NCBI GenBank assembly: GCA_973895155.1
Contig: OZ316892.1
Coordinates: 14,066,861 to 14,130,860, forward strand
Direction of reading: 5' to 3'
DNA: 64,000 nt
Origin: Marsupella aquatica
Taxonomy: Eukaryota; Plantae; Marchantiophyta
Part shown: positions 5,906 through 64,000 of the stretch, in pieces
Layout: every line of letters begins with the position of its first letter
Numbering within the stretch: position 1 is the first letter of the stretch
Program-made: the position numbers and the translations under genes
Notes under the pieces: model-generated
Told to the model about the DNA's origin: nothing
Seen by the model: the letters and a program-made list of their open reading frames with translations, nothing else
Database searches by the model: none

Positions 5906-6057
5906 CCTGCTTATCTAGTGCTCATTACTGCGAATACTGTAATTAAAATAAAAGGTGGAGCACTCACCACAAAAGGTAGACCCTGCTTGTCTAGTACTCA
6001 TTCCTGTGAACAGTGGAATTAACATAAAGGTGGGAGCACTCACCACAAAAGGTATAC
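5906..6057. repeat. Two diverged 76-bp tandem units
   Basis: CCTGCTT.TCTAGT.CTCATT...GGAGCACTCACCACAAAAGGTA starts at 5906 and again at 5982. Confidence 0.8.
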
Positions 6058-11489: not shown

Positions 11490-11758
11490 TTTTCTATTTA
11501 GTTTTCAAAATTTGTAACTTTTGACCGAACTTAATTATTGAGATCAAAGCAAAATCTAAATGTTTTGTAGAAAAATCAATTGTGTTTTATTATTAAACTA
11601 GTCAATCATAAGTTTTAACACTTTCGTTTTTTTAGTTAATAATTTTTTACCGTTGTATGCTAATCATGTATTTCTTTTTCATGTTTCTCAATTTTTCTTG
11701 TTTTTCATTTTTTCTTGATATCTTATATTGAGGTTTGAAAAAAAGGAGGAAACTTTTG

Positions 11759-12243
11759 ATGTCTCTAATGAATTGGTTTGAAGATAAAAGAAGATTCGGT
11801 GGATTAATTGAAGCTTTTATCAAAAAAGCTACCAAAGGATATATATTTAGTGAAGGGGAAAAAGATAAGTATATAAAGATTGATACTACTAAAGGGTTGT
11901 GGACTACATGTGATAATTGTGAAAATATGTTATATGTTCGATTCTTGAGACAAAATAAAAGAATTTGTGAAGAATGCGGCTATCATTTACAGATGAGTAG
12001 TACGGAAAGAATTGAACTATTAATTGATCGTGGGACTTGGCATCCTATGGACGAAGATATGACTGCAAGAGATATTCTTAAATTTTCAGATGAAGATTCT
12101 TATAAAAATAGAGTAGTATTCTATCAAAAACGAACAGGTTTAACCGATGCTATTCAAACAAGCATAGGAAAATTAAATGGAATTTCTATTGCACTTGGAG
12201 TTATGGATTTTCAATTTATGGGAGGTAGTATGGGATCTGTTGT
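11759..12243 (+). pseudogene. accD: Plastid acetyl-CoA carboxylase beta subunit, 5' half (NUPT)
   Basis: [17 protein letters not shown]...CDNCENMLY...[22 protein letters not shown]...[14 protein letters not shown], truncated where it meets the rps11 fragment; bryophyte-type N-terminus. Confidence 0.95.
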
Positions 12244-12358
12244 TTGAGCAGCAAAAGGTGTACTTTTTTTTGCACCCTTAAACCCACAGGCACCAGCAGA
12301 AGACCAAGAAATGACTTGTCCAGTATATCCGGAACTGCTACAATTGTATTATTAAACA
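12241..12358 (-). pseudogene. rps11: Plastid rps11 internal fragment (NUPT)
   Basis: The minus strand translates, with one frameshift, to [38 protein letters not shown]. Not called in the ORF track. Confidence 0.85.
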
Positions 12359-15155: not shown

Positions 15156-18100
15156 ATGTCTCGAGTGGAATCTCCCTTTCATGCCATTGCTGCAGAGGCA
15201 CTCGACGACAAAGACATTCCCGGCGTCCCCGTCCTGGACGAGGTTGAGGCCGATGGTTCTTCTGCTCCCGCCACAGCAACTACATTCGCCACAAGCTCAG
15301 TAGACGCCAAGGATGGCCAAGAAGAGGACTCTGCTGTGAGGCCGCAAGCATTGGAATCGAACACGGAAAACAGAGGGGACGGCGAACATTTTAGTGGAGA
15401 AAATGGAGGTCAATATCATAATGGTGTTGAAGAAAATGGTGGCAATGAGGCTTCGGGCAAGAACGGAGATCCGGAGCAGGAGGTAGAGGAGACGCCAGTA
15501 GCTCTGGAGCAGAAGGTTTCCTTTGAAGGTTAGTGATTCCGATTTAACTCTTTCTTTTCATTCTGTTGAACGACTATATCTTGCCTAGTTTTGACTTTGC
15601 TATCGGGAGGGACCTATATCCCCAGCTGAAGCTTAAGCTGATTTGCACTTTAGGGAGTGATGGAGTGGTGCCAAGCCCTTATATCTTCCGACTATGACAC
15701 TATCTCGTGAAGACTGTTGTGTGTGTCCCAAGTCGGTGAAGTGGTCTTAATATCATCGCGTTGTTGTATGAACTGCTGGAGACCGTGGAGAATGACCCCT
15801 TCCCTACCATTAAACGTTCAGTGTCCTGCCCCATACTATGTAGCCGTGAATTCTGCGGTCTGTCTCATTGTTTCGTGATTTTGGGTTGCCGGAATCGGAG
15901 CTGCACAATGTAAAACATGAGAACCAAAGATTTGGTTAGGGTTCTTGCAGTGAATGAGTATTATTAATTTTCTTTGGTAGGCGCTACTGGGATCTCACTC
16001 GTGGAATAGGCAGGGACTTTTCATGCTCCAAACAGGAACGTGTGATTATATATTCTCAACGGGATTTTAGGGTTTTGAGAAAGATTGGGTCTTACTTACT
16101 AAGCACTGTGGAATCTTGAACAATGCATTCCGGTTTCCTCTGGAAGATTCTCGTTTCATGTTTTCGGGAGGGTGGATGTGTGGTAATGATCTCGGCAGGT
16201 GGTGGAGCAGAAGTGAGCGAAACAGTCACTAAGAAATCAAAGAAGCGAACCAATGTATGGACCAAAACGACATCTCGGAAGAGTGCGAAGAAAGTTAAGA
16301 ACAGTGGAGTACGGGGTCAGTCCGACGCTAAGGATGACAACGTGCTTTTGAAGCCCTATCATCAAGAGGATGACCCATCGTATCCAATTCTCCTCTCGAA
16401 AATCTACAAGGCGGAAAAGATTGAGCTGAGTGCGGATAGGCTCACCGCGAGTGGTAGTAAAGGTTATCGGATGGTGAGAGCAACTCGTGGGGTCGTTGAA
16501 GGAGCTTGGTACTTTGAGATTTGTGTGGAAAGGTTGGGAGATACAGGGCACACGCGGCTGGGTTGGAGCACAAGGAGAGGTGACATTCAGGCACCAGTAG
16601 GATATGATGCTCACAGCTATTCTTATAGGGATTTAGATGGCTGCAAAGTTCACGGAGCACTACGGGAGGACCATGGAGAGGCGTACCATGAAAAGGACGT
16701 GATTGGCTTCTATATAAATCTTCCTCGTGAGCCAGGCTTTGTGCGGAAGCCGGAGGAGGAAGTCGTTGGGTATAAGGGACAACCGTATATTGTTGTCGCG
16801 GATGAGCCCCTCAAACCGTTGCCAGGTATGGTATTGTCCCTTCCCCCCAGTTATAGTCGAAGTCAGTCGCTGAAGCCAGTCTGGCTGGTGTCGATGTCGA
16901 AGAAGTTGAAGACAGTTCGAGTGTTGTTCTCTGAAAGTGTAGTCTTTGTTGTGATTTGTGCCGCGAATTTCAGTAGGACTTCGTCTTGATTCGTCTCGAG
17001 AAATCCTGTTGCAATGGCGATACCGTCTTATCTTTCTGCTTATAGACTGATGTTCCAAAGGAAGTAACGTCGTTTACTTTCTTGTCCTCTGTTATATGTT
17101 CTGCTCTGCCCTCATTCCTTCTGGTCTGGTCAAAGTCCAAACGGCTGAATGGAGAAAGGATTTATATACCAGTATTCTTGCAAGTCGGATAGATGTTTTG
17201 GAAACGAAGAATTGTAATTGGAAGCGTGCTTCAAATCGGGGGGTGCAATAAACCTTCGGGAGCTCATAGCACTTGATTGTGTTGAAATTTGGTGCGAAAT
17301 GTAGTAACAGTGGTGTGTGTGTGTGTGTGTGTGTGTGTTTTTTGGGGGGGGCGGGGACGGTGGTATAAAGTCATCATTGAGAAACTAGTTTACCTAGAGT
17401 TAGGGGCAGTCGATATTTACCCATCTGCATGCCCAAGGGCCGAAATTGAACCAGAGAAGGAGAGTTACTTTTGATTTGATTGCTGAAAATGGACTGCCAC
17501 TGAATCTCTATTTGGTATGGTTGTAGGAAGTGAAATACTCTTTTTCAAGAATGGAGTATGCCAAGGTTTGGCCTTCAAGGACATCAACGACGGCAGCTTC
17601 TTTCCTGCTGCATCCATGTATACCCATCCTTCTCAGGACTGTTGCAAATTAGTCTTTAATTTTGGTCCAGATTTCAGGTATCCTGTTAATGATCTTGGAG
17701 ATCGACCTCTTCCTTCACCCATGTGCCAGGCTCCTAGGCCTTCTGGAGAGGCGAGGGCAGAAACCTTTCTTACAAATCAGACGCAGGCAATCGTACAATT
17801 TACAGAGAATGGTGGGGATAAATGGACAGCACCTGAATTTGGCGATCCAATGGAAGTCGAAGAGGCTACAGAAGCTACAGAAAAGGAGAGCAAACCCAAG
17901 GACGTTGAAAAGGTACCACCAGAAGCTAAAAAGAAAATTAGAAAGTTCAAGGTCCCGGGTGGGAGCCATAAGCCGTCACCGTCGTCTAAAGGTCCCAAGG
18001 TAGGAAGGTTCCTAATTCACCCAGAATCCAAGAAGGATGCAAATCTCAAGTCATTTAAGAATGACATCGTCAGAGTGGGAGTGGAATCGATCGGTCTGCT

Positions 18101-18824
18101 AAGTCAGAAAGGGGACAAGAAAGATACAGCAAGAACAAGATTGCCAAATCCTAAGGAGACTCTGAAGAGCAAAGGATTGCTGGATCTTGAAGGGATTCCG
18201 AAGGAGACAAGATTGTCGATTCACAAAGAGATACAGAAAGGCAAAGGATTATTGAATCTTAAAGGGGTTCAGAAAGACAAAGGATCTCCAAGTCTTAAAG
18301 TTAGCAAGAAAGTTTCGATTGGAACAGGCACTGAAACAGTGTTACCTCTCAAAGCAATTAAGAAGAACCTTCCTGCGACAAGTTCAGAACTTGAAATGAG
18401 TAAGGAAGATTCACTTAAAGCGAGTAAGAAAGACTCACGTGGAACGGGGTTAGCATTCAAATCAAGTAAGGACTTACCGAGATTGGGATTGATTCACAAA
18501 CCGAGCAGGAAAGAGTTCTCTGGAACAGGATCAGCTCAAAAATCCAGCAAGAAAGACTTGCCTGGAGTAGGCTCAGCTTACAAACCGGGCAAGAAAGACT
18601 TACCTGGGGGTTCAGCTCACAAACCCAGCAAGAAAGATTTGTCCGGAACAGGATCATTTCACAAACCCAGTGAGTTCAACAAACCTGGATCTCTGCTTAG
18701 GGGTACGGGGCTATCAGCCTTTAGTGCGGGTAGAAGGTGGGGAGATATTCACGGGGCTCTGAATGTTGATGTTTTCGTTGTGAAAACCGCAACACCCACT
18801 CAAGTCGAAGGTCCTTTTGGGTAG
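15156..18824 (+). CDS. TRO: ASH2/TRAUCO-like COMPASS subunit (SPRY domain) with C-terminal extension; exons 15156-15528, 16199-16825, 17527-18824
   Basis: [100 protein letters not shown]. Both introns are phase 1 and consistent. The exact start codon and whether the tail is translated are less certain. Confidence 0.88.
17313..17338. repeat. (GT)n microsatellite in ASH2 intron 2
   Basis: About 13 GT units. Confidence 0.9.
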
Positions 18825-36498: not shown

Positions 36499-39400
36499 AT
36501 GTTGATCGGGATGTCGGAGCGTCGCCGCGGTGATGGTGGCAGGAAAGGCAGCAGGGGCAACCTGTCACATTTTGGGTACCTCCTGGCGGTTTGCATGGTT
36601 TCCCTCTTTACCGTCTTCAGCTTCTGCATTGGAGGAGCTCGAGGGGATGTGTACATGGTGTTGGTCGAAGGGGAGCCGGTGGTCAGCTACCGAGGCTCCG
36701 TACCGGGGTTCGTTGCCACCGATGGGTTCTCTCTCAGGTCGTCATCGTTTAGCATGGCCGGGTGGGTGGAGCCTCGTCCCTAGAGAACCTGTTTGATTGG
36801 CCGTGCTTCTTCTGCAGTGTATTCTAGTGATTTTACGCACCCATTATCTCAAATGTGCTTGCTTGCTTTCTTGTCATCAAAATATCAAAATCTCGAGGAG
36901 GGTGTGCCGTTTATTGATTGCACATTTTGAAGGCGCCTATAGGGTCCCTTCTCGACAACTGCTGTGATTCTATCGGTGCATTCACTCATTCTCTCAGTGA
37001 CAAACGCACGTCTTGTCCGGGATTATTCTCCTTGAAGTTTCAAGAGTCATTCTGCTGTATTTCTGAAAAACGTCGAGTCTTCCCTCTCACAAGCTCCGCT
37101 TCTCGTGATAGCGTTGATGGAGATTCCCGTCAGTTCCTTCCATTCCTCTGTCCGAAACTATGGATGCAGATCCCCTGGACGTTGAGAATCCATGTCATAT
37201 CTTTGTTATCAGCCTGCATTCGCTGATGATACCGATACACTCCGTGTGGGGGCTTGATTTTTAGGAAATATGTCCTTGCCTCTGAGAGTTGCACCCCCTC
37301 CATTGAGTTGAATCCAGTATCCATGCGGTGGCTGTAGCACCAAGTTCTGAAATGGACGAGAACTTATCGTTCATTCAAAGCTAGACTTTTGCACACTTTA
37401 CTGCCGCATGACAAGTTTTGTTGATCTTGACTTCTGATTATGGCTGAGTGGACCTCTTTCTAGACTTCACGATGAAATATTTCATTTGAACTTTCAACAC
37501 GGGACTGAATCAGGCATACTTTCTCGAGTGAGGGGTCCCTTCCATTGAATCCGAAAAATGGTATCACTGTCCAGGATTTAAGTCTGCTGCATGCGTATGC
37601 GAGACTGAATCCCGCGTTGTTACGTTTGCGCTATTCGTATTAGGTCACACCTCAGTCTTGCTGAGGCTGGGGCCAACTGTCATGTCTGGTCATGGGGATT
37701 CATTAATTTATTATTAGTGAAGGGTACTGTAGAACTCCCGTTCGTGCCCCCCCTTGCGAATCATTCAATGAAAAACAAACAAACGAAATCTTTTGCCACT
37801 TTTGGGGGGCCCGCCACGGGAAACTATCGCCAGCTTACTAAGCTCCTGCAAAACTCTTGAATCTGCAGGTAGCTACAGTATACTTCTGTGTGCAGTGACG
37901 GTTGTCGTCTCGTGAGTCCTTAGGTAGCTACAATAGACTTTCTCTTTGTAGAAACGGGTGCCACGCACTCGTTGCTGCTTGTAAGCCAAGTCAGTTGCAT
38001 TCAATTGTCCACTTGGATGTTGACCGGCCTCTATCTAAGACCCGTACATTTGGCTCTTGGAAACGTACAGTGATATGATCGTTTCCATGAATCACGAATT
38101 ATGTCTGATGTTTAATCCATTTTTTATTCCTCCGTTTCGAGCATGGCGAAAATCAACATTCAAAGCTTACCTTGTTCATTTCTCCTGGACTACAGTATGC
38201 CCGGCCTCATGTCTAAATTCCTGTGCTGCTGTTGGTTGGAAGTGTGCAAGCTGTGCAGGCATACTCAACACTGCTGTTAAGCCAGCAAGACACGCTTCTC
38301 GACAACACTCTTGGGAGTGGCAACTACAAGAAAATTTATGGCTATAACCATCTCATCAATGGATTTGCGGTTGATCTAACGGAAGAGCAGGTATTCACGA
38401 AGTTGCGAGATTTTCTTTCTTGGTCCTTTGACGAGTTGATTCTGCTGTCATCAGTTGGAATATTGTAATTGGGCACTCTTCAGAAACCAGTTGGACGTTG
38501 CTGTTAAAACCGGTGGCTCGTCCCGATATAGCGCAGCAGCGCTCAAGCGTAGACCTTTCTTCGTTGTGGTCTTGATAACGGGTCCCAATAATATAAAGAG
38601 AGTATTATTGACAAACCTCGCATCTATCAATATCTCAGAATCACTATAGTGGTGGAACCGTGTGGGGCTACACGAGCATTGTTGACCTCCCCGAGAATGA
38701 TTCGGTTCAACTTACCATGGAGATGTAGTCAGCCTTCCAAACTTGCCGTCTCTTCTTGTTCCGCGTATCCTGCGAAGCACTAGGATGAGCTGACCCTTCA
38801 ACATTCTACTTGCCTGACCTTTCAGGCAGACCTGCTACACTTTCTAGAATTGTATGAGCGAGGTTTCACCATGACAGTAGTGCTTGTCTGTCCAATTTTT
38901 GTAAGCTATCTGGGGTGTCCATTACTGCAACGGAAAAGAATGTGGGTTGTTTTCAGGGACTGGGCCTGTCATTTCATCGTTCTATGTGTGCCTAACCTTT
39001 TGTCACGGTGCTCTGTTGAAAATGAAGGCGTACGTTTTAAATTCAACGCCTGGAGTCAAGCTCATGGAGAGAGATAAGCAAGTGGAGAGCTGCACGACCC
39101 ACACTCCCGACTATTTGGGCCTTGTGAGCGGCTTGTGGAACGCGGCAGGGGGAGCGGACAATGCAGGCGAGGACATCGTCATTGGGATGGTTGATACGGG
39201 GATTAATCCCACTCACGCGAGCTTTGCAGATAGCTCCACCAAACCTTATGGGCCGCTTGTGCAGTACTTAGGAACATGCGAGGTAGCTGACAGCTTTCCT
39301 GCCGGTTCATGCAATGGGAAAATTATCGGCGCTCAGCACTTTGCTGAAGCTGCCAAGAGCGCAGGGGCCTTCAATACTTCCATCGATTACGATTCCCCTC

Positions 39401-42400
39401 TGGACGGTGACGGGCATGGAACGTAAGATTCTGGCCTGGCTTGGTTTTGGTGGTCTAACTTCGGGTCGTGCCGTCGCTTCTGCCAATAGCAATTTGAATT
39501 CCATTCTCAATGCCGGAGCTTTTGTCTGTAGATTTTTATTCGAGTATTGTTGGAGATCGTCTTATTAGTTGATTTTGACGATATAGTGCCTTACTTCCGA
39601 GGAGAGGTACCACTATCTTGGGGGACATCGTTTCCACTCACGCTCTAACTAATTTGTGTTCGCACCTGCGTCTCGTAAGCGTGTACTTAGACGAGACAAG
39701 TAGAAAATCCTTGACGGGTACTTTGCTGTAGTGGGCGGCCCGGTATCATGAATCGCTGAATCTGCGTGATTGTTAATGAAAATTGTATTGCCGTATACCC
39801 GTCCTCTGCCATATTCACTGCCCTGGAGCTGGAGCCCCAGTTCTAGTTTAGCCTTTTGGCTCAGGAATACTTACAAACCAGTCTTGTCCTTTCTTGGAGC
39901 AGAGAGCAGAAGATCCCAGTCTCTAGATGGCTTGTGGAATGACCTCTCCAAGCCATTTGTTAACATCGCAGTTGGTGGCATTTCTCTTAACAATCTTGTG
40001 GATGGCTTCTGCAGGCACACGTCGTCAATTGCAGCCGGTAACCACGACGTTCCTGTGATGGTCGCCGGAGTTGACTACGGAAAAGCCAGTGGCATGGCTC
40101 CCCGTGCACGGTATGCCTCTAAGCGTCCCCCTGTCTCCGCTTCTCCTTTTGCTAGGATGTCTTCGTCTTGACTGTCGGATGTGTTGCGGTCACCGAAACG
40201 TTTTTTTGATGTGAGAGCTGGAGTCAAATTGTGTGCTCTGGTTTTGTAGCATTGCAGTATATAAAGCTCTCTACAGATCGTTCGGAGGGTTCAATGCAGA
40301 CGTGGTTGCAGCCATTGACAAGGTAAATGTCGTTACCTCGGTTGTGTTTTTGGTGTCATGTCTGCAACTGTGGAGGAGCAGAGGTTCCTTCCATTTATAA
40401 CTGGAACCTGTCATAATTGGAATTGCTATCTTTTGTCTATGTACCTTTTTGTGTTTTATGTCAGACTATACGATATCATCTATTATTCCAGACCAGGCGA
40501 AACCATCGCTTCTTGCGTAAGTGTCTTTGTGCTGAAGAGAGTGGGATTGGTTGCAGGCTGTACAAGATGGCGTTGATATTTTGAACCTGTCACTTGGTCC
40601 CAATAGTCCACCAGCAGACACAACCACCACCTATTTGAGTATATTTGACCTCGCCTGCCTAGCAGCTGCGAGGGCCGGTGTCCTTGTTGTCCAAGCTGCT
40701 GGAAATGGAGGACCTTATCCGCAAACTACACTCTCCTTCAGTCCTTGGATCGTAACCGTTGCAGCTGGTGTTGATGACCGGACATATCCAAACTACGTCG
40801 ACCTTGGAAATAATCAGAAGCTTGTGGGAGAAGGCCTCGCACGTGAGTTTTCGCATACGTGGCCTTGCTGACAGTTAGTCCTGAACGTTATGAGAATTGA
40901 CTATATTTTGTTGGTGTAGATCTGCTGTTCTTCTGGACGGGAGGGCCGCGCTGCTGACTTGTTATTCCGTTCTCGATGCTCTTAGAGCAATAATTGTTTT
41001 GGTGCAAACCTAATACAGACGGATGATGGACGATGTGTGTTTATGGAGGGGTCACAGCTCTTTTCTGACGTTGTGTTGTGCCCAAAATTGCAGCAAGTAC
41101 GCCTGGGAACCAAATGATCAAATTGGTTCTTGCACAGGATGCAGTCGTTGGTCCACCCAATCCCATCTACGACTCTAGTGATTGTCAGGACTCCACTGTC
41201 TTCAGCCAGGCCATGATATCTGGCAATATTCTCATTTGCACGTACTCTTTCAATTTCATATATGGAGGATCTACAATCAAGCGTGTTGAGGAAACTGCAG
41301 GTAATTTGTCTGCCGCCGGTTTTATAATGGTGGTACAAAGTGACACTGCTGGAAGTAGATTTGATCCCATTCCAATCACTGTTCCAGGAATCATCATCAC
41401 TTCCCAGAATAATTCTCAGGTGGGCATCAAACTTGCTTTTGGTATATGCACAATTGCCTAGTTGTCTGATGTCGTGTCTTTTAAACGTTGCCAGCGACGA
41501 CTTGGTTGGTCACACTTGCGGGGAGTTGAGTCCTTGTCTTGCATTCCGCTTGAATTTTAGTGCTCACGTACCAAGTCAGCATCCGGTTGCTTAAGATCAA
41601 CTTTGCGAAGTAGTAAAGAACAGTGGCAACGGTGGCTCCTCGTAAAGATATTAATCTCTTTGGTACTTCTTGGTTCGATTTGGATATGCAGATGCTTCTG
41701 GATTATTATAATGCGTCGACCGTGAGAGATGTAAAGGGTCAAGCACATTCCTTTGGAGCACAGGGTAAAATCGGAAATGGACAGAATGCAGTGTATAGTG
41801 GTACATCTCCAGTTGTGGCAGTGTATTCGTCGCGCGGTCCAGACATCAAAGATTTCAGTTTCAATAACGCAGACTTGTTGAAGCCAAACATTCTAGCACC
41901 CGGAACACTCATTTGGGGTGCTTGGAGCCCTGTTGGCATTGATCAGCAAGCGTTTATCGGTAAGGTTTCCTTCCCTGGTTGCCAATGTGCTGATATGTCC
42001 ACGAAAGTACTTTTTCTTAATTCAACCACCAAGCGGAGCCTCCCATCTACATTTACTTCCTTTGCATGTTGTCACTGACTTGTTCGTGTCTTGATTCTCA
42101 GGGGAGGAGTTTGCACTGATTTCAGGGACCAGTATGGCTACACCTCATATTGCAGGCGTTGCAGCTGTTCTGAAACAAAAGAACCCAATGTGGGGCCCTG
42201 CAATCCTGAACTCAGCGCTGTCAACAACAGCCTCAATATTTAATCCTGATGGCAGTCCTCTTCAAGCTCAACAGCTTTCGTTTGGTGGACAATCAGCTAA
42301 TATACTTGGGACTCCATTCGATTATGGGAGCGGTGCGGTAAATGCAACCGCAGCTCTTGATCCTGGAATCGTGTTTCAAGCAGGTTAGTGTTCTTCTCGA

Positions 42401-51458: not shown

Positions 51459-51645
51459 GTTTCTTAGTTGTGTTTTTTTTCATTTCGTCATTGTTCTTTC
51501 ATCACTTGAGTTAATTTTTCATGTGTTTTTTGTTGCACCAGTTTTTTTCATGTTTGTTTCACATGTGCCTCCTTTCCTTTCCCAATCGCAAGTGTAAATA
51601 ACTTGGGAGTTGCTAAGCAAACACCATGTTGGTGTATGCCTTTAG

Positions 51646-51915
51646 TGTTGAGCATAGACCACATTTGTAACGGCAAGCCCATGAACCATCCAACTCACGA
51701 TAGTCGACACAGAGAGATACGTGGTTCACCTCCACATGAGGCTACGTCTACGGGAACACACAAGAGCTTTACTGCACTCTAGGCCGACCGGCCATACCAA
51801 GCATCCACAGCACAAGCTCTCCCTATCTCTCAACTAGCTCCGTAACAATGAGCCTAAGTTCCACCAGGGTCTGGCATCAGCCCTGGCTATATACACAACA
51901 GCACTACCGCTAACA
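51646..51915. mobile_element. Solo LTR (copia-like)
   Basis: TGTTGAGC...GCTAACA inverted ends flanked by TTAG on both sides; internal GATACGTGGTTCAC...GGCTACGTCTACGG motif typical of copia LTRs. Confidence 0.65.
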
Positions 51916-52762
51916 TTAGCTAAGTCCCCTAGGCCCTCACTGTGTGTATATTAATGAAACCCACCTGTGAACGACCCCCTCTCCAAAACCCTTCAGTACT
52001 ATTTTTTGTCCTTTTAAAAAACTCTTGTTAATATTAATAAATTATTTTTGGACCATTAATAAAGCCCTTTGGGCTATTATAATCATCACCAAAAGATCAT
52101 TAAATATGCCCTTCGCGTATTATAAAAAAATAATGTTGAGATTCTGAATTGGAAAAATTGAAATATACATATATCATTCTGAGAATAACATATATTTTAT
52201 GTACACATTTCCTCGTACACATGCATTTCCTCAAGAAAATAAGGAGGCACATAAGAGTCAAAGATCATGCAAGTAAAGCTTATAGTTGGAACACAATGTA
52301 GTTAGTCCTATAGTTCCTGTAAATCTAAACCTCCCCCAAACTTCTATCTAATCATTTTTCACTAAAATGATAATTTTCACCAAAGCACGTAAATAACTCT
52401 GGTTTAAAGCACTCTCTCAGATATCATGTTTGATATCCTTCATCGGAAGCAACATGCTTTTAAAACACCTTTGTCGACTTGACCTCCTCTTCCTTAGGGG
52501 GCCAAGTATGGCCATACACTTCTTAGTTGATCCTCTAGAAAATATCATCTTCTAGAAAATACCATAATGCTGCAACTGGTCAAAACAACTTTGTCCCTGA
52601 ACAATAGGAAACCACATATTCATTAACATTTCATGGAATGACTCACGTTTGCTTAGAAATTGAACATTAAATAACATTCAAAACCAGATTCTAAACCTAG
52701 ACACAAATTTTCTACAGTAAAATAACAAATCAATTTGACAATTTACTTACCAAATATCACAT

Positions 52763-53020
52763 TCAATCAATTTTGCTCTTTACAAAGTTTTCCAATGCAA
52801 TTCCATCATCTGGATGCAATTTGAATACTTTTGGATGCAAAGGATTGACTTCAAGGGTGACTGTTGATATCACACAGTCTAAATCAATCCATTGAGGATC
52901 ACACACAGAGTACCTAAATTTCTCCTTATTATTACCAATTGGAGTAAACCAATTAAAGAACACTTTGCATGCAACTTCTGGACCAGGCCTATCAAGCAAG
53001 TCCACTGGTTCTCGTGATCT
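52763..53020 (-). pseudogene. 3' end of an unidentified coding sequence, possibly another TE, truncated by the CACTA insertion
   Basis: The protein-like reading frame REPVDLLDRP...VFFNWF...WIDLDCVISTVTL...FKLHPDD...* starts exactly at the CACTA boundary. Confidence 0.45.
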
Positions 53021-53846
53021 CACTAGTAGAAACCGGGGGGTATTTAGACCCCATTAAACGACTATTCAGTACCGTATAGGACTTGGAAACGACTGGGAAG
53101 GACTCTAGTCCTTTATAGGACTGCGAGTCGTATGTTTTGTTACTATAATCAACTGAGTCCTTTATAGAACTGGTTTATAAGTCGTTTAATAGACTGGATT
53201 TTCAGTCTATTTTAGTCTTTGTGTGGGTAGCTTTGGTGAGTCGTTTTTAGTCTTTTATGGGCTGCGATGATGAGTCGTTGGGAACGACTAAAAAGGTTAT
53301 GGAGGGTAGTCTTTAAATATACTTTGTGGGGTATGTATAAGTCTTTTATGTCAACTGGATATGAGTGATGAAGACCCCACTATACTACTTGGAATGAACC
53401 CACTCTTGTGCACAAATAACATATTGCATTCATGTTTTATTGTGTACTTGGAATGAACTCACTCTATAAGTTCACCATTCATCATGTTAACATTAGAATA
53501 CATAGTTTCAAAAAGCCATCTTCTATACCATGTACACTAATATGAATTCACAGATTCAAACTTCATAGACTACAAAGAAGGTCACAAAGTATTCCTCTAT
53601 ATCATACACACTAATACTGAAATGATAAAATAGATTCAAGTATCATAGACAATCACCATAGAGCCATAGTTTGACATCAATCACTTGTTTCATACATACA
53701 GAATTCAGAAATATCAATGTCACACACAACGTCTCCTTCATCCTCTTTACCAAATGGAAAAATTGGTACAGATATTTCTTGGATCTTTCCAAGGCAATGT
53801 CAAAATGTGACACAATTCACATGATGCTATCTACACTTGCATTCAG

Positions 53847-56800
53847 TCACTGCAGACTAACACACTCTGATGGCCAGAGCACAAGAGATCCTACTGCATC
53901 TGCAATTATTTCCTGAGGTGGATCATCGTCTCTATTCGGAAATGGCAAATTACAATCAGATACAATCACTGTAGTCAACAACACTACTACATGGTCATCC
54001 GGGACCACTTTGCCATGGAATTTTGCATGATCCGGTCGCAAAATGCCTGTACCCACACATACCTGCGAGTCATCCTCCCATGATAGAAGATTATGGACTG
54101 GCTCTGCTGTGGCTATCACCTCCACCTTACCCTGGCTGTTTTTCTTGGCTTTCCTGGGTGGCTTATACATGACATTATTCATACCTTGGTTGCGAGTCAT
54201 GACTTTGGCACGAGTGTTTTGTGCTGGTGATCGAGAATTGGCTACACTCTTCTTCAAAGAATCTGCATCCATATTTGACACTTCTGATTGTGTAGCAGGA
54301 TTTCCCTGCGACATCATCTCAGTATCTGCCAACATTGTACTTGCTTCAATTGAAGCATCTACAATCTTACTTGCATCCAATGTTGCTCCCAAGTTTCGAC
54401 GTCGCTTCACCCTACTCCCACTTGGTTGAGAGTCTGTCAACTCTGCATCAACTACAATTCAGTGTCATGTCCAACATAAGTCAATCACTCATCACATGTG
54501 CTAAATGTACATGTCACCAACCACAAAGTTGTCACTATCTCCTTACCATTATGAACAGCCTTCTTCCCCTTCTTTGCCATTGCCATATGCTCCATGTCTG
54601 CTTCTGTTGATCAATAAACACACCACAATATTGAGGTTGAATCTATTAACCACTGAATTGTTGCTCAACATTCATATAGAGGAATTTAAAGCATCAGCTT
54701 ACCTGATACCTCCTTGGCTATGGTCACTGAGGCACTGGGCACATCTTCTTCATTATTGCTCTTTGAATCACCTGATACATCAATCATGATGTCACTTCAG
54801 ATCCCAGTTCATCCAACCAGTTCTTACAGAAAAGATTACCTCCAACCGGCTTAAGCTTCACAAAACTCCATGCACTTTTCAAATGTAATGTATTGGATCA
54901 TAGCAGGTTACCTGTCTCAGCAACCTTCTTGCCCTTCTGCTTACTGATTACAGGGTCCTTCTCTGCCTCCACTCTTCCTGCATTCAAACCATTCACTCAA
55001 TTCATGAAAACTTACTTCTAACATTTGAACATAGGACACAATGAACAATGGGCCAGTGTCATTTCCATACCTGTGTCAGATTTGCCAATTCCCTTTTTTG
55101 TTAACAAGGGCACACTTTGTACAATGTTGCCCTCATTGTTTGGTTGGGAACCACCCAATTTTTCAATCACAAGCTTGAAATTAGATTCCACTGATGCAAG
55201 AAGGTTCGCTACAGATGCCTCCACAATATCCAAACGATCAGCCAATTTACTTTCCACTCGAGGGAGTCCACACTCTAATGACTTCAACCGTTCACACATC
55301 TCTGTGAGAGTTGTAACAGTTCCCTGTCATAACACAGCTTACATATCTCAGATAACTGTCCCCAAGAACTGGTTGCTTACTTCCTACTACATTTCTTTCT
55401 GATGCTCAAGGCCAAATAGTCACAGAACATACAGAATTACAACATAATCACCTGTTTGGAAGTTACACTTGTCACCTCACTCCTTTGTTTCATGAACTCC
55501 TCTCTCACTTCTTGTGCTGATGGTTCTTCACCTGTCAATTTCTTCTGCAGTCCACATCAACATACATATGAATGAAACCAAGTGTTGATTGTCAATGAAA
55601 ATGTAATAATGGTAGCAAGATGATAAGTTTGAGGCTTACTATCAGGCATGTCACTGCCTTACCAATTGTTCTTTCACTGGAGCATAACTTCCTCTCCCAG
55701 CCTGTGAAAGGTGTTTCACTTTGCCTCGAGCATTTGACATCAGTTCACTCTTGCTCTGTCCAGCCTCCGACATGAACCCTTTGATTAACCGTGTCCATTG
55801 ATCCAGTTCCAATGATGGGGGTGGTGGCATTCTCCTGTTAGAACCATTGTCTATCCACATCCTTTTCAACCTATGCCTCTCTTGTTTCAAAATCCTCATT
55901 GCATAATCTGATATGCAATCTTCAACTGGGCCCTTACCATCATTACCAACATACTCCCACCGTTCAAGAATGTCCTTGCAGATAGCAGCCCAATCAGCTT
56001 TGTTCTGACTCCTAAACTCTGTAATGCTCAAATCTAACCAACGCAATACTTCTCCTCTTAGGTCAGAATGCCAACGGTTCTTACCATCACATGTGGGAGT
56101 TATCCAACCTTCGGAATTCACTTCTACTTTACCAAATTTGTTACTGTCTCCTGCCTTGGTACTCCCTGAAGCGCTACTAGGTGTCCCTCCACGGCCTGGT
56201 GTCCCCCCACGGCCTGGGGTCCCTCCACGGCCTGATCTCCCCCCACGGCCTGGATTGCATTGTCCAAACCTCCCTGGAGTCCCTGCACATTTACAGGATC
56301 CATTTATAGTCACTTACATTAGGTAAGTATGAATCATAAATCCCGCTGCCAAATATACAGTGGACTTCAGAGCAATTCTGCAATGACCAAGTTACCTCTC
56401 CCTTGGCGCATAGATGGTTCTGGACCACCTGTCCTATTGCTTTGTCTTGATGAATTAGGGGCGTTTCTCCCGCCTGTGAATGATTGCCTCCTATCTGAAC
56501 GTTGATGGCCTTTGTTGTTTTCGTGATTGTCCCAATCAGAGTCTGCATACCAACAGGTACATGCCACACTCATGGACCTGTAAGATAAACTCTTTGCCCT
56601 AGCTACACATCAGATAAGTGCATATTGAGCTAAATCTCTACTACCATCACAAAATCACTAGCACAAGGCACTTACTTGTCCAATCATCCTCCTCACCTTT
56701 CCATTGCCCTCTGTACCCGTCTCTACCACGCTCTGGGTGTTCATATTCATCCCATCCATCTTCTGCTCCATCATAGTCATCATCATAATCATCAGGCGTC

Positions 56801-57018
56801 CCTTGCCAATAACTCTGGCTCCTTCTAGGGTATGGATTATGTGATTTCTCTCTAGCTGCCCACCTACCTGGGACTTGATGAGGGCCCTGTGCATCTTGCA
56901 CAGGTGCATTTTTCTGTGAGCCCCCTGCATCTGGGTCTCCATCCATATCCAATCTTTCCTCTTCACCCCACTCTCCAAGCCCCATGTCTGTCTCCATGTC
57001 ATCACCCTCTTCCCCCAT
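53847..57018 (-). CDS. CACTA TnpA-like accessory gene, multi-exon (internal exon boundaries approximate)
   Basis: Transposase_24/Ptta-like segment (ILKQERHRLKR...PPPSLELDQWTRLI...SELMSNARGKVKHLSQAGRGSY), a coiled-coil exon at 55070-55320, and a TNP1-type C-terminus (FHGKVVPDDHVVVLL...LPFP...IADAVGSLVLWP). Confidence 0.75.
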
Positions 57019-57195
57019 AGCTTTTGCACAGCACCCACAACCAAACAGGGAGAATCAGCACACTAAATTCAAAGTATCAATCAATTTCATGCATATCCAA
57101 TTATCCTAAACATCATTCCAGGCAGCAATTCCCGTTATGTGACTCTGTGCAGGTAGTCATCCTCAACCTCATACTTGCCAATCGCCAGCTGTTGC

Positions 57196-60100
57196 CTATT
57201 GCAAATCATCAACCTCATCATATTCCATTTGCCCAGGTTCATCATATGTCTCTCTCAATGTTAAGGGGATGTAGTCAGTCCCTGCCCGAGTTGGAAGTAC
57301 AGTCTCATGACTAGGATGCTCGAATGCAGCATGGTCATCCAAACTGAACTCTACTTTACTTCCATCCATCCGCCTGTTCCGTGCTTGGCTATGGCATACC
57401 ACCCTCCAGCCATGTGACTCCTCCACATCTGCAAAGAAAGCCTTTTCAACTTGGCTAGGGAAAACAAAAGGCTCAGACCATTCTGGTACTCTGGACCTGA
57501 AATTGGCCAACAAGAACCCATCATGATCACGCTTCATGGTGGCCCTTGGTCTCTGCCACTCTGATTTCACCCATGATCCCTTCATCAATATCACTGGGAC
57601 ACTTGTGTTACCATAATTCAACACCCAAATGTTGGTCAACTCCCCCACGTAACCCATCTTCATCCACCCCCTCTGTTCTTCAGAGGTTCTCTGCTCAAAC
57701 ACAGAAATCAAACCACAATCATATGATACACAATGGTCACCCTGCTCATCCCTCACTCGATAATGATTTCCATAAGCTCTCATCCGTTTGTAGGTCAGAA
57801 TAGACAATCGTGGTGGCACAAATAGAAGATACAAATCCTTCTCCATATCTGGGTGATGTCTACTATGCTCTCGAATTGTCATCCAAATCCACTGCTCGAA
57901 CTGTGGGAAGGGATCCTGCTGCCCAGAGTGTGCAGCTTTTTGCATATCATATTCCCTGCATTATGAGGTACAGGCATAGTTAGGTCTAAACAACACATGA
58001 CAACCTAAGATCACCCTTGGAACAGACAAGAAGCATCACAACAAAGGCAAGTCAATTCAATCACTCACCTCCACCATGGTTGCATAGGCTCTGTGTTTGC
58101 CAGCACATATGAATGAGCCTTGTCTCGAATCGCAACAGGCAGCTGAACAGCACGTCCCACACCTTCAACAACCTCGCCACTCACTCCATCATCTTCACCA
58201 GATTTCCAAACTCTTGTCATAGCTTCACCAGACCCAGCCATGTACTCTGTTAGGAATCCCAACGTCTCATCCGTAATGTACCCCAATGCCATGGAAGCCT
58301 CTGGCCTGTAGTATGTTCTCACATGACCTTTCAACAACTTCATGTATCGCTCCATAGGGTACATCCATCTGGTACTGACTGGCCCATACTGCCCTAGCTC
58401 TTCTACCACATGGATTAGGAGATGAGTCATAACATCAAAGAAAGCAGGGGGGAAGTATATCTCCAAGTCACAGAGGACATAAGCAGCATCCTGCTTCAAC
58501 TGCTCCAATCCTTGGGGATCCCACACTTTCACACATATACGGCGAAATACATTGCACAGTCGAAGAATGACATTACGGACTGGTTTCTGCATGAGACCTC
58601 TGAGGCATAGGGGCAGAATGTGCTGCATCAACACATGGTAGTCATGTGTTTTCATACTGCCAAGTTTATTCTTTGTAATATGCTTCTTGAAGGCACCAGC
58701 ATAGCCAGAGGGCACTTTCAGACAGCTCAATCTATACAAGAATGTCTTCCATTCATCCTGTGTGCACACATAGGGAGCTTGGAACTTGAGAAGTACATTG
58801 GGATTGCTTGCATGGGGCTTCAACCAAAGGTGAGGGCGAATCCCCTTCTGTTGCATATCAGCTCGAACTGCTCCTGTATCTTTCTCACCCGACAAGAACT
58901 TCAGCAAGCTCTCACAAATATTTTTCTCAATGTGCATGACGTCCACATTGTGTTTGCTGGGCTCGAATTCCTGCACTCCACAAAGCAAAGAATTCAACAA
59001 CAGAAACACTAATTAACCACATAGGAGGATTGTAACCAACATCAATCCACCATTGCTCCAATCTAAAATTGCAATCATACAGGGGCTGGAGGCTAAGTAC
59101 ATTACCCTCCAGTACTCCAACTCCAAGTCCATCAAGGTCTGTCTTTTCACACCGTGTTTCACCACTGGATCCTCAGGTTCTCGATCAGTGGCACTTCTCT
59201 TGTCCCAATCAGCCTTCCTGGCTGCCCACCTCAGGACTTGCTCTCTGGTGACCCTCTGTGGTGGGCCACGAAGCTCTGTTTTGTTGTTGAAGTGTGCAAT
59301 TTGAGACCGTGTGTGCCTGTAAGGATGATCAACAGGCAGATACCTTCTATGCCCCTGAAATTTCATACTGTGCAGGGCATGCGACCACTCACTTGTCACA
59401 TTTTTCCCACATGGTGTGCACCCCACATAGCCCTTTGTCACTCGTCCAGATATGATGCCATGGCCTGGGTAATCTGCTATATCCAGCAAACAAATTGCAT
59501 GCAGTCTAAAGGGGCTGGGTCGAAGAAGCCCCTTCAGAACATCATGGGTTAACACCCCTTCTATCCACAAAGTCTTCCACTCTTCCACTGCTGGAGCCAA
59601 CATGATATCTATGAATTGCTCGGTCACAGAAGCTGGTCCAGGGATTAACAGCACCATCATGACAAAAAACCTCTTTGTAGTCATCCATGGGGGAAGGTTG
59701 TAATTTAGCAGCGTAACCGGCCAACATGAATAACGGTTGTTTTTGTCTCCAAATGGGTTTACTCCATCCAGTGATAGACCAAATCGAAAGTTCCGCTTCT
59801 CTGCAGCAAACTGTGGCCACCTCTCATCAACAAATTTCCAATGGTTGGAATCTCCAATGTGACGCTGCAGGCCATCACTGCTCTTGTTATCAGGAGTCCA
59901 TGTCATCAGCTTGGAAATGGCAGGGCATCTAAACAGACGTTGTAGTCTAGGAATGAGAGGAAAATGACGAAGAACCTTGGCAGGGTGTGTACATTTCCCT
60001 ACATTCTTGTACCTGTGCTTACCACAATGAGGGCATGTCAATTTATCTGCATGCTCTTTGCGAAAGAGAACACACCCATCAGGGCATGCGTCAATAGACA

Positions 60101-60896
60101 CATAGTTCAGCCCAAGGTTAGACATCAATTTCCTAGCCTTGTACATATTTTTTGGAATTGAATTACCATCTGGTAACACATTTCGGCGCAGGAAGGTCAA
60201 CAACTCTGTCACAAATATATTGGGAACATTGTGATTGCCACAGATGTTCAACAACAACACGACAAAACCCAGCTTGGAGTAGTTCGACCCCTCGTAGATA
60301 GGAATGCAAGCTTCTTTGATGTGTTTTGGGCCCCCAAACACCCACTCCCTCTCTGCTGCACCTTCCCCAATGTCAAAGTCAGGTTGAGCTTGGCCGTCGC
60401 CAATGTGTGGCTGCGGTTCATTGTCCTCTTCTGATTCCACTGTGTCGTAAAAAGCATCAAGGTCTTCAAAAATCTCTTGAACCATTCTTGGGACATCCAT
60501 CCCACCGTCCTCAGTGACTGCCTCTGCATCTCCATCTTGGTCATCCACGTTCTCATGTTGGACCCCAGGACCATCCTCTGCACAGTCTATGTCCTGCTCT
60601 ACGTAGTCTCTACGCCTAGCTGTATTAGAATCCACAAAGTCAGCTCTCCACTCTTCATCAGAGGAGTCTTCTTCTGCTGGTACATTCCAAACCCTCCACC
60701 GAGGGTGCCTTTCATGCCGCAGCAGGTGAAGGTGCACAGTGTTCAAACTCAACGACTTGAATCCTTGGCACTGTGTGCATGGGCATCTCATCCTCCTACT
60801 CCTACCTTGGGCGGCCCGGGCTTGTTCACGCATCCACAATTTAGAATCATGATGCCTAATCCTAAATGGGTTGTGAAGAGGCAACCTTGGAGCCAT
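57196..60896 (-). CDS. CACTA transposase TnpD; exons 60896-59106, 58970-58069, 57955-57196 (~1150 aa, intact)
   Basis: N-terminal CPC..C zinc motif; IDACPDGCVLFR; GLSLDGVNPFG...SCWPV.LLNYNLPPW (Transposase_21); DVMHIEKNI; MKTHDYHVLMQ; FPPAFFDVMTHL..H; RWMYPMERYM (DUF4218); EPFVFPSQV..FF (DUF4216). Intron phases match. Confidence 0.95.
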
Positions 60897-61221
60897 CACT
60901 ATACACACGCACTCAGCACCCTGTCATTTTATTATGCAAGTGAAAATACACTTCCTGTTAAGGATTTCACCCCCGACTGTACTTGCCAAAATACGTAACG
61001 TTCCAAAAAAACAAAAAAACAAAAAATATAGGTGCCTGAGTCATGTACCTATTCTCAAGTGAATGAGACAAAATTCCTAAATGTTTGAGGGTGTCAACTC
61101 CTCCGCTGTCCTCACATGTACTGCCTCTGCACGTACATCCATGACCATATTAGAGTCCAATCATGTATAGTCATAGACACAGGTGCCAGGTGCGAGACCG
61201 GTGTGAGATGTCCTCATCTTA

Positions 61222-61619
61222 CTACCACATCAAATACGGATACCAATCCTGTTGTCGATGCCACTCAGCCCTGAGGTACTCAGGCATGTACATTAAGTCA
61301 TCAAGGTCTAAACCCTGCTCATGCCATGGTGGTCTTCGATCCGTGCCTACAAGCAGTGGCAGCAGTGCCCTCCATGGTGCACATGTTGCTACCAAGTCCC
61401 TCCACTGGGTACTAATTAGTCTATATTTGCAAATATCTTGTGCGCCAGACACCACAAGAACCCTCGGCCAGACATGTGTAAGAACTATATCATCTGCCAA
61501 ATCAGGCAACAAGGAACCACCTACAGCATCGTGCTTGTCTAACTCATCTGCTGGAAAGTAAATGTCCTCTTCCGACTGTGCATCCTCATTCACCACAGCA
61601 TTCACAACACATCCAAGGT
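61222..61619 (-). CDS. F-box-containing exon or ORF inside the CACTA element
   Basis: SLLPDLADDIVLTHVWPRV...ICKYRLISTQWRDLV fits the F-box consensus (L.LPDDI...I..R......L.LVSK.WR.L). Confidence 0.65.
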
Positions 61620-61931
61620 CTGCAGGCATTATCTCGGATGGAGCTACACTCTGTCTGGTTACCAATCCACACAAGTAAGCCCAAGCAGTAGCCATGCACG
61701 ATGCAACCCGTAGGAGGACCCTACATAGGGCCTGACGGTCTGGAAGAGGCAGCATACCCACCAAAGTCTTCAGCCAAACAGAGCCCAGCAAGTAGATTCA
61801 CAGTCACACCCCACGCAGCAGGAAACAACAATCACTTCAACTGCGACCAACCATGACAAGATGAGTTAGTTCAAGGATCACATTTATTACAAAATTGTGT
61901 TTTATACAAAAATATGAGGGACTCCTACTCC

Positions 61932-62795
61932 TCACTCTCTCCCACCTTTGCTAAGCATACATCTCCGCTGAATCTTGGAGGGCCAGGCCTCAAAAATATC
62001 AAAGTCCCAAGCATTCTGTCGCTTCCCTCTAGCTGCTGATTCCAGAAGCCAATCAGGGGAAAACACCCAAAGATTGTTGTTCATGACAAAATCACGCACT
62101 GTTGTCTTAAAGAATTTTCTGCATATTTTCATGTATGACAGACCTACAACATGAGTGGAGGTTTCTGTTAGACTCTCCTCCACTGTCCCACCTAGCTCAA
62201 CAACTATAGACTTGTACAGTCTGCACTTAGTCTCCCCAATTCCTTCTTCTGCAAATACCACACTGAACCCCTTCATAATGGTATTTCTCTCCTTGCCATG
62301 CTCATTCAATATAGCATCTGCACGCATAGGATGGTGTCCTATGTTGACAACAGGTCCATATTGGACAGAAGCAAAGTTGGGTTTCTCTGCCGCTGCTTCA
62401 TAGGCTTCCTTTTCAGCCAAAGCCTCTGCAGTGGCCTCCTCACTCTCCCACAACTCATATTGCTTAGTACTCTGTACACACCTATGTTTAACAGAATCGG
62501 TCAGCCAAGAGACTTCAACTACTTTTAGACCTTGGTTGGTAATGGCAGAATCAATGAAGGACCATGACCACTTGTTCATCACATCCAGCCATGTCCCCGC
62601 AACAACATGTGTAGTCTGTGGAGTGATGTCCTTGACTTCAGTCCCATGGAACTCTGAGAATCGTTTTTGTACGATTGGCCAACTCACTTGGGTGAACCCA
62701 TAGTGGCCAGGAATCAAAATGGCTTTGATTCCAGCCAACAGAGGCGGGTGGTCAACCTTTGTACGTTTCCTAGAGGCCATGTACACACGGGCCAC
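61932..62795 (-). CDS. Tandem BRCT-domain protein (Pol-lambda-type BRCT) inside the CACTA element
   Basis: Two BRCT units: LLAGIKAIL...HG....ITPQTTHVVA...VVEVSWLTDSV...YEL and MKGFSVVF...LGGTVEESLTETSTHVVG...FSPDWLLESA...FDI. NLS-like RKRTK; no stops. Confidence 0.8.
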   Translation of the reverse strand: MARVYMASRKRTKVDHPPLLAGIKAILIPGHYGFTQVSWPIVQKRFSEFHGTEVKDITPQTTHVVAGTWLDVMNKWSWSFIDSAITNQGLKVVEVSWLTDSVKHRCVQSTKQYELWESEEATAEALAEKEAYEAAAEKPNFASVQYGPVVNIGHHPMRADAILNEHGKERNTIMKGFSVVFAEEGIGETKCRLYKSIVVELGGTVEESLTETSTHVVGLSYMKICRKFFKTTVRDFVMNNNLWVFSPDWLLESAARGKRQNAWDFDIFEAWPSKIQRRCMLSKGGRE

Positions 62796-63378
62796 CTAAT
62801 CACTGCAGACCGGAAGATAATGCGTTCACCTGATAATCGGAGGGCCCTTAAAATGCTGCGTTTATAACTTGGTCCAGTCCAGTCGTCTGGTGAGTCTCTG
62901 CTCCAATTCCAAACGGGAGAAATATTGGGACAAACGTACTAGACACCTGCAAGCATGCACCTCATAGTTTGAATATGTGCCTTCACAATATTGAAGGTGA
63001 CAAGTGCAATTGTTTTGTGATGCCACATACAGATGTTGTAAATGGGCAGACATTCAATGAGAATACAAAATGTTGGTACACTTTAAGGGAATTCTCGCAA
63101 ATTAAATAGCCTTGTAACTTATATGCTCATAATGAGAAGTCCTGATTTAATTTAAGCAGTGTCATGTAAGTCGTGATCAAAATGATTGTAGAGTTAAAAA
63201 AGTTCCTAGAAGGCTTAAGGGCAGTTTTTGAAGGCATGTACCCAGGAACAAGTAATGAACTTAGGGTACTTGTTGCCTAAGCATCCTCTCCTACAGAGGT
63301 CCTTCTTCTCAAAATTGGAATGTCTGCAATCTCCAAGGTATCCACATCAGGTGCACTATGCATGTATATTATTCAGGT

Positions 63379-64000
63379 TCAAAGCCAAGAAATGTGATCT
63401 CTCATGGGAGTGTGCAAAGTAGGATCTATGGCATGGCGATGACAATAGAAGATCCATCGATCAACACCATGTGCAGAGTGATCATAGATGTGTCTGTCAC
63501 AAGCATAGCCTTCTGCTTGACGCTCCTTCAAACAATGAAAGTGCCACATGGTGGGACACCTAACACAGTGGACTATGTCCACCCAGAAATCTTCATCGTG
63601 CTGACCACATGCCTTGCACTTATGAAGTGGGCAAGTTGTGGCAAGATCGGGCAAACATGAAAAACAAAAGAACCTCACACAATATCTGTCAGGGCATTTC
63701 CTAACAAGTGGTGGAGCATCAACAGAGCCCTCATAAGACCCCAACTTCCCACACTGTGCACACTTAACCTGCTTCTCCAAACAATCAGTGCACATCCAGC
63801 CTCCCTGGTGTGCTGACGGGAGGCCCACCCCTGGACAGTTGTTTTCTGCAGCAAGGTCAGACTCCGGGTTGAGGTGGAAATGCCTCATGCAAGGGCCCTC
63901 ACATATGGCTAAGCCACCACCATCGTCACAAATGGCACAACAATGAGCTGCCTTCTGGAAAATCTGACTTGCGGAGAAGTTACTACCATCTGGCCCAACT
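63379..64000 (-). CDS. EDM2-type composite PHD-finger protein (5' partial) inside the CACTA element
   Basis: The frame is open to the window edge: CAICDDGG.L..CEGPCMRHFH...C.DC....CAQCGKLGS...C....C.RFF...TCPLHKCKAC...CVRCP..WH.HCL...IFYCHRHAIDP.L.TP.RDHI, collinear with the EDM2 PHD region as I recall it. Confidence 0.82.
   Translation of the reverse strand, partial: VGPDGSNFSASQIFQKAAHCCAICDDGGGLAICEGPCMRHFHLNPESDLAAENNCPGVGLPSAHQGGWMCTDCLEKQVKCAQCGKLGSYEGSVDAPPLVRKCPDRYCVRFFCFSCLPDLATTCPLHKCKACGQHDEDFWVDIVHCVRCPTMWHFHCLKERQAEGYACDRHIYDHSAHGVDRWIFYCHRHAIDPTLHTPMRDHISWL

Follow-up and report, generated by a model that had tools for sequence, protein, structure and literature searches.

A CACTA transposon lineage with a probably old tandem-BRCT gene upstream of its transposase, a more mobile PHD frame and a doubtful F-box-like frame

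CACTA transposons are described as having two open reading frames or genes (PMC4158355, PMC13547354), and the locus described here raises the question of whether such an element can hold further genes of its own. The locus lies at the end of a 64,000-nucleotide (nt) stretch of contig OZ316892.1, the window, in which a CACTA element spans position 53021 to beyond 64000, with one end (a terminal inverted repeat, TIR, and subterminal repeats) inside the window. A preliminary description had proposed that three frames upstream of the transposase gene TnpD, with PHD, tandem BRCT and F-box domains, form a combined chromatin, repair and ubiquitin toolkit. Our analysis shows that the feature is real, and points to a CACTA lineage that bears an old tandem-BRCT gene within the element, accompanied by a more mobile PHD frame and a doubtful F-box-like frame. 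CACTA gene content exceeds TnpA plus TnpD, and a BRCT-only gene in front of TnpD has been kept in two deeply diverged CACTA elements. The features of the element are:

53021 to 53032, plus strand: CACTA TIR, starting CACTAGTAGAAA; element end downstream of the genes
53057 to 53289, both orientations: subterminal repeat array, six AGTCGTT (motif count in the window)
53847 to 57018, minus strand: TnpA-like gene, 747 amino acids (aa); predicted nine-exon model, all introns GT-AG, no internal stop
57196 to 60896, minus strand: TnpD transposase, 1150 aa; predicted model with exons 60896-59106, 58970-58069 and 57955-57196
61222 to 61797, minus strand: F-box-like open frame, 191 aa from stop to stop, first ATG at 61755; variable among copies
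61881 to 61898, minus strand: AATAAA-containing motif of 18 nt behind the BRCT stop; 16 of 18 positions identical to 1768-1785 of the metagenome locus L001
61932 to 62780, minus strand: intronless tandem-BRCT gene, 282 aa; BRCT domains at aa 11-112 and 165-264, linker partly flexible
63379 to 64000, minus strand: NSD/EDM2-type multi-PHD frame, 206 aa; stop-free 63999-63379, open at the window edge

Upstream of TnpD on the minus strand stand the F-box-like frame, then the tandem BRCT gene, then the PHD frame, all open, co-oriented and packed within 3.1 kb of the TnpD start, as had been described; Markov resampling of the region gave three frames of at least 191 aa in 0 of 1000 cases. The domain calls of the preliminary description stood for the BRCT, which gave a Pfam match above the cut-off (BRCT, E 2.5e-13), and those for the PHD and F-box fell below it. 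A word search with the BRCT frame returned one relative among 795 candidates (P0001, 61%), and a profile search returned 24 proteins, about 17 of which are short, unnamed, stand-alone proteins with one or two BRCT domains; the records of the ten relatives looked up came from Logan, JGI, ENA, NCBI or EukProt. The tail of the 24 included Pol-lambda-like (P0023 confirmed) and TopBP1-like sequences. P0022, also considered as Pol lambda, gave no hit in one search and a tie in another, and was not confirmed. No close host-type donor was found in these searches, in the search of the PHD frame against longer proteins or among the F-box candidates. Elements of this kind are a likely origin for the unnamed stand-alone BRCT proteins of public assemblies, a group that might otherwise be mistaken for host repair genes in annotation.

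When metagenomes were scanned with eight BRCT sequences, there were 90 pattern matches, and a single locus, L001, was confirmed; with a two-sequence alignment, none of 222 pattern matches was confirmed. The wider BRCT alignment gave no confirmed match in viral genomes (0 of 6) or prokaryote genomes (0 of 65), and nothing was found in plasmids; scans with TnpD were likewise negative in viral genomes (0 of 2 and 0 of 51) and prokaryote genomes (0 of 20). L001 was retrieved by its BRCT alone, and an open CACTA TnpD lies directly behind its intact BRCT gene on the same strand. This TnpD is 42-56% identical to that of the window, has introns at matching positions, and is followed by a possible TnpA start.

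Over 251 aligned codons, the window and L001 BRCT proteins share 26-28% amino-acid identity, with a nucleotide identity of 0.57 for second codon positions and of 0.23 for the 30 four-fold sites, so that silent sites are saturated. In simulations of random mutation, 3 of 2000 frames had escaped a stop at 0.25 substitutions per site and 0 of 2000 at 0.5. Because the frame is open in both elements despite saturated silent sites, it appears to have been kept under constraint, and from these comparisons the reading of the tandem BRCT as a maintained accessory gene of the element, not a passive capture, is well supported. Judged in the same way, it is likely to be an old accessory gene of a whole CACTA clade. 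First BRCT repeats grouped apart from second repeats (16 rows, 91/85; 95/85 in the other tree), and since the first repeats form a group of their own, the two-BRCT pair predates the split between the window and L001; a single clade of all second repeats gave a p-AU of 0.22. The AATAAA-containing motif, which was found post hoc, is likely to be a polyadenylation signal (16 of 18 was reached in 8 of 2000 shuffles, and three control regions reached 13 of 18), and its presence in both window and L001 suggests that the BRCT gene is a separate transcript. Upstream of the L001 BRCT, an open frame of 140 aa (231-653, plus strand; no Pfam match) may be another accessory gene in place of the PHD.

Contigs from 10 of 12 sequencing runs match part of 54000-63999, and seven runs were compared with the window; summed contig depth does not equal copy number, and single-contig depths were used for ratios. 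In run X1, single-contig depth was 30-48 on the flank versus 1766-2073 on TnpA and TnpD pieces, an approximately 50-fold step at the TIR, which suggests roughly 50 young copies. These pieces differ from the window by 1-7 letters per 489-1644 nt; the CACTA family has recently been amplified, and is young and probably active. Summed depth rises sharply at the TIR in X1, X2 and X3 and remains high up to 64000, and single X1 contigs over the three-frame cassette had depths of 1799 (62243-62335), 1712 (62905) and 1880 (63337). No single contig bridges the cassette, and linkage is given by equal depth and by the window sequence itself: because depth stays at the element level in X1 to the window end, the three frames move with the element. 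All three are covered in organisms A, B and C, and in run X5 (organism C) every one of the 30 bins of 60401-64000 was covered. The observed-to-expected CpG ratio was 0.24-0.35 in the cassette and 0.27-0.36 in TnpA and TnpD, versus 0.66-0.68 in two host gene regions; the cassette is thus as depleted as the transposase genes, which fits long residence in a transposable element (TE). Two further observations concern the BRCT region of other copies. In the linker between the repeats (62244-62334), the window copy is unlike the main contig of X1 (the joint has depth 1799), and X5 has a net 3-nt insertion nearby. X5 also showed depth spikes on BRCT repeat 1 (62561-62680; 1919) and TnpD (58001-59000; 4893-7853), which no contig links, a hint that a further CACTA family, one that carries a related BRCT, is present at high copy.

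The element itself is a CACTA element, with every feature that can be checked within the window present. TCT at 53018-53020, directly before the TIR, is the expected target-site triplet, and 6 of the window's 16 AGTCGTT matches fall within the 233 nt of the subterminal array, 4.9 matches being expected across the whole window. No second TIR was found at 53033-64000 on either strand with up to 2 mismatches, in agreement with the statement that no closing repeat separates the frames from the transposase; CTAGTG does not occur after position 52900 of the window, and an Rfam scan gave no match. After removal of its two GT-AG introns the TnpD model has no internal stop, so that TnpD is intact as claimed, with Transposase_21 (E 1.3e-59) and DUF4218 (E 2.7e-27) above the Pfam cut-off and Transpos_assoc and DUF4216 below it. 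Residues D377, D475 and E804 sit in motifs that we take to be the DDE triad. The TnpA-like model matched Transposase_24 below the cut-off (E 0.014), and the introns of the two models are 93-140 nt long. The C-terminus of the TnpA-like protein (53847-54140, minus strand) gave no match in a Pfam search and resembles the small beta-barrel of TnpA proteins. TnpA-like domains are said to be confined to flowering plants (PMC13547354); if the host is a seed-free plant, the domain would extend beyond them.

The TIR interrupts a frame fragment of 96 aa (52763-53053, minus strand; no Pfam match) in a slightly repeated flank, and an older repeat may have been the insertion site of the CACTA element. A second CACTA-like terminus lies at 1125-1136 (minus strand), one mismatch from the TIR at 53021 and oriented towards the window start. 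It was rejected as part of the same element: similarity stops at the terminus, and the sequence behind it is unrelated.

A structure of the BRCT protein predicted from 16 sequences (pLDDT 80.8, pTM 0.50; pLDDT 35 from 2 sequences) has two confident domains and an unsure linker, and this model confirms the BRCT fold. The linker is about 50 aa long, with pLDDT below 50 at 135-163, and rmsd to all tandem pairs is 11-22 Å; in phosphopeptide-binding tandem BRCTs of the BRCA1/MDC1 type a short linker packs the repeats head to tail. Foldseek placed the ligase IV BRCT pair first, level with BRCA1 and Rad4 (rmsd about 20 Å), and the VIA-align leaders were PARP4 (Z 15.7), XRCC1, TopBP1 and ligase IV. 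By profile, the second repeat matched BRCA1 (E 1.1e-7) about as well as Pol lambda (E 2.5e-7), the latter being the only top match aligned across the whole repeat. The phosphopeptide pocket of this BRCA1/MDC1 type combines a Ser/Thr-Gly that follows strand 1 with a Thr/Ser-x-Lys in the region of helix 2 (PMC10386641); this motif pair is present in none of the four repeats of the window and L001, and Ser/Thr-Gly is present in 5 of 6 repeats of the TopBP1-like P0019. The Pol lambda BRCT contacts Ku via R57 and L60 of helix 1 (PMC12056208), and the corresponding residues are K/L in window repeat 2, K/M in P0001, E/H in L001 and R/L in P0011.

The PHD frame matched three NSD-type PHD models in order, all below the Pfam cut-off (E 1.8e-5 to 7e-3), streptophyte NSD-like PHD clusters of the Atlas at 0.91 with 171-181 shared features, and, weakly, AIRE and NSD2 in the PDB (E 0.004-0.06). 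No homologue was found among 289 candidates in a search against longer proteins only, and none of 7 in a scan of viral genomes. Loose contig ends from both X2 and X5 extend the open frame by about ten codons beyond the window edge. A hand count was made on five in-register loose ends of runs X6 and X8, from 24 of 103, with two overlapping ends counted once. The 27 changed codons comprise 14 silent, 12 replacement and 1 stop (p 0.0006 against 0.22), with every Cys, His and Trp retained; the copies compared are non-independent, and the X8 ends could derive from a host gene. Left out of the count were X8 63520 (out of register by one base), X6 63958 (dissimilar to the window) and, as short, X6 63452 and X5 63657 and 63688. 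Of the X5 differences listed, 3 of 4 are silent. This pattern makes a moderate case for the PHD frame as a kept accessory gene. Its depth in X1 is about twice as high (bins of 4663-5096), and in X6 (organism D) 4 of 5 PHD bins are 1276-6520 deep, with the TnpD and BRCT of the element mostly below 200. Because PHD-like sequence is deep in X6 where TnpD and BRCT are barely covered, it also travels with other repeats, and the frame is likely to encode a kept but exchangeable histone reader.

The F-box-like frame gave a Pfam E of 0.06-0.08, below the cut-off, and Atlas F-box clusters at 0.91 and 0.89 (ranks 4 and 7; 85-86 shared features), with unnamed clusters higher at 0.91-0.94. No homologue was found among 81 candidates and no match in the PDB, and no substrate domain was recognised. 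Codon usage is element-like against stop-free nulls (9 of 3000), and the short-range differences between copies look neutral. A deletion of 43 nt (61547-61589) shifts the frame ahead of the F-box motif, and no start codon follows. It occurs in an X5 contig whose depth of 42.7 is close to the family level at that place, and in a minority contig of X2. Splicing of the F-box onto TnpD was considered by eye and rejected, both candidate donors joining out of frame. Altogether, the sequence makes a weak case for this frame as a kept accessory gene; it is likely to be dispensable cargo, and its passive capture, taken alone, is quite possible.

These results divide what had been proposed as a unit. 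The frames had been called trimmed to domain boundaries, which holds for the BRCT; the PHD frame continues past the window, and the F-box motif is flanked by about 100 aa before and 50 aa after it without a known domain. Their maintenance as accessory genes is likewise well supported for the BRCT, has moderate support for the PHD and is poorly supported for the F-box. None of the three observations that the preliminary description had named as refuting was made for the BRCT: no TIR intervenes, the frames are multi-copy, and constraint is seen at deep divergence. The label EDM2-like fits the NSD-type PHD cluster matches in Streptophyta. The combination of three genes is not conserved: L001 has BRCT and TnpD with no F-box between them and no PHD in the 870 nt upstream of the BRCT.

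Elsewhere in the window, host genes include an mTERF gene (7104-8597, minus strand), a subtilase gene (38905-42078, plus strand) and a gene at 16120-18824 (plus strand) that gave no Pfam match and that we take to be a probable ASH2/TRAUCO-like SPRY protein. A plastid accD-like fragment in nuclear context (11732-12247, plus strand) gave weak Pfam matches; with the mTERF and subtilase genes it marks the window as land-plant DNA, and its appearance hints at a seed-free plant. The stretch 51501-52000 is a very high-copy short repeat (summed depth above 100,000 in X1; no Rfam match), possibly a solo LTR.

What the BRCT gene might do for the element can be put as follows. The explanation we prefer, which has in our judgement an equal chance of being right or wrong, is a CACTA element with a clade-old BRCT repair adaptor, an exchangeable PHD reader and dispensable F-box-like cargo. 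TnpD makes cuts, and the BRCT protein, made from its own polyadenylated transcript as the common AATAAA motif suggests, would steer host repair of those breaks. Each of its two repeats, distinct since before the split between window and L001, would have a partner of its own and would not read phosphorylated motifs; the likeliest partners are factors of end joining (Ku, ligase IV or Pol X complexes) or the transpososome. The benefit to the element would be that its donor site, or the gaps left at insertion, are closed safely. The stretch 5' of TnpD would serve as a zone for accessory genes, of which one is stable and others are gained and lost. Whether the protein is an adaptor in host break repair is evenly balanced; the fold, the position of the gene and the need of the element to mend its cuts argue for this role, for which the coupling of a transposase to Ku by PiggyMac (PMC4148214) is a precedent. 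The hand-over from transposon to repair has mostly been viewed from the host side, and the BRCT gene would offer a defined, deletable candidate encoded by the element. We consider unlikely the bolder joint form, in which a CACTA clade with its own BRCT adaptor coupling cutting to end joining also has, in one family, an EDM2-type reader and F-box module that would choose chromatin, manage the break and remove host restriction factors.

Several points weigh against the preferred explanation. The gene models of the element are sequence predictions alone, without transcript support, and the genomic context comes from one distant locus, so that clade-wide linkage has n=1. The donor candidates BRCA1, Rad4/TopBP1, REV1, PARP4, ligase IV and Pol lambda score alike, and E/H in L001 at the R57/L60 positions leaves a shared Ku-binding surface unsupported. 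When the openness of the frame is allowed for, the codon usage of the BRCT resembles that of the element only weakly (107 of 3000 nulls). Differences between X5 and the window BRCT comprise 11 replacement and 2 silent changes (p 0.43), which is neutral-like; they come from 40 of 199 rows, mostly from one contig. TnpD rows are likewise 8:3, and private mutations of single copies are expected, so that the 11:2 ratio neither supports nor refutes constraint.

The absence of a catalytic domain from the BRCT protein also suits a different role, in which the pair would be a decoy at Ku or checkpoint docking sites, delaying end joining, favouring sister-chromatid repair of the empty donor site and raising copy number. 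Pol lambda that lacks catalytic activity has a dominant-negative effect, exerted by way of its BRCT-Ku contact (PMC12056208), the window second repeat keeps K/L/Y at R57/L60/F61, and the family has recently been amplified, with the few differences seen in X1. However, R57E abolishes recruitment in human Pol lambda (PMC12056208) and L001 has E at that position, and two distinct, long-kept repeats suit a bridge better than a single decoy, which leaves this reading improbable. A maintained gene acting outside break repair, for example by binding element DNA, TnpA or chromatin, would be consistent with the lack of a phosphopeptide pocket and of a family-wide Ku motif; a common fold alone shows no function, and host domains put to new use are frequent among TE accessory proteins (PMC13547354). 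However, DNA-repair or checkpoint proteins make up nearly all of the closest solved structures, and double-strand breaks are part of the life cycle of the element, so that we regard a role outside repair as very unlikely. A single coordinated, co-selected toolkit of PHD, BRCT and F-box would account for three open, co-oriented frames at element depth in X1 that are covered in organisms A, B and C, for the TE-like CpG depletion of all three, and for the element-like codon usage of the F-box frame and the silent excess of the PHD. It is unlikely nevertheless in view of the gene content of L001, the deletion that puts the F-box motif out of frame in X5 and in part of the X2 contigs, the deep PHD-like sequence in X6, and the failure to find an F-box homologue among the candidates. 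Passive capture of all three frames as host fragments, open since the family is young, is the kind of process known from Pack-CACTA elements (PMC13317346), and the short-range BRCT and F-box differences do look neutral. We nonetheless hold it to be highly improbable: the BRCT is open at the same position in two elements with saturated silent sites, no close host-type donor was found, and the CpG depletion fits long residence in a TE.

The element can be set beside several known systems. Pack-CACTA elements likewise hold host-type domains inside CACTA ends, but the window element is coding-intact, with a BRCT open at saturating divergence and no close host donor found. VANC of VANDAL elements and the ULP1 of KAONASHI, both Mutator, are also host-derived domains long kept as extra TE genes (PMC13317346); these belong to another superfamily and have other domains, and VANC is an anti-silencer that removes methylation from cognate copies in a sequence-specific way. 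An F-box inside a DNA transposon has a precedent in an isoform of Zisupton (PMC12062965, citing Bohne 2012), although this is a fish element of the KDZ superfamily in which the F-box is fused to a transposon protein, whereas the F-box of the window is a separate frame. EDM2 binds H3K9me2 and acts at TEs (PMC7529245); the window frame has below-cut-off matches to three NSD-type PHD models in the order of the EDM2/NSD-type cluster, but ends directly after it, and the likeness comes from cluster matches, not from EDM2 sequence.

The BRCT domains of Pol lambda and ligase IV also have the fold without the phosphopeptide pocket. Ligase IV, whose linker clamps XRCC4, also has a long stretch between the repeats, and Pol lambda has a helix 1 like that of window repeat 2; in contrast to both, the window BRCT is not joined to an enzyme, identity is 13-20%, and the Ku-contact residues are not kept in L001. 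No CACTA element with a BRCT was found in the literature searched, most subscription journals and Repbase reports lying outside the search, so that a prior database note is possible. The closest system is CACTA/En-Spm, in the split-gene, head-to-tail arrangement of Arabidopsis EN/SPM2, 5, 6 and 9, which has the same kind of end and subterminal repeats and likewise places a TnpA-like gene behind TnpD on one strand. To this plan the window element adds at least three open frames upstream of TnpD, one of which is conserved in a distant element.

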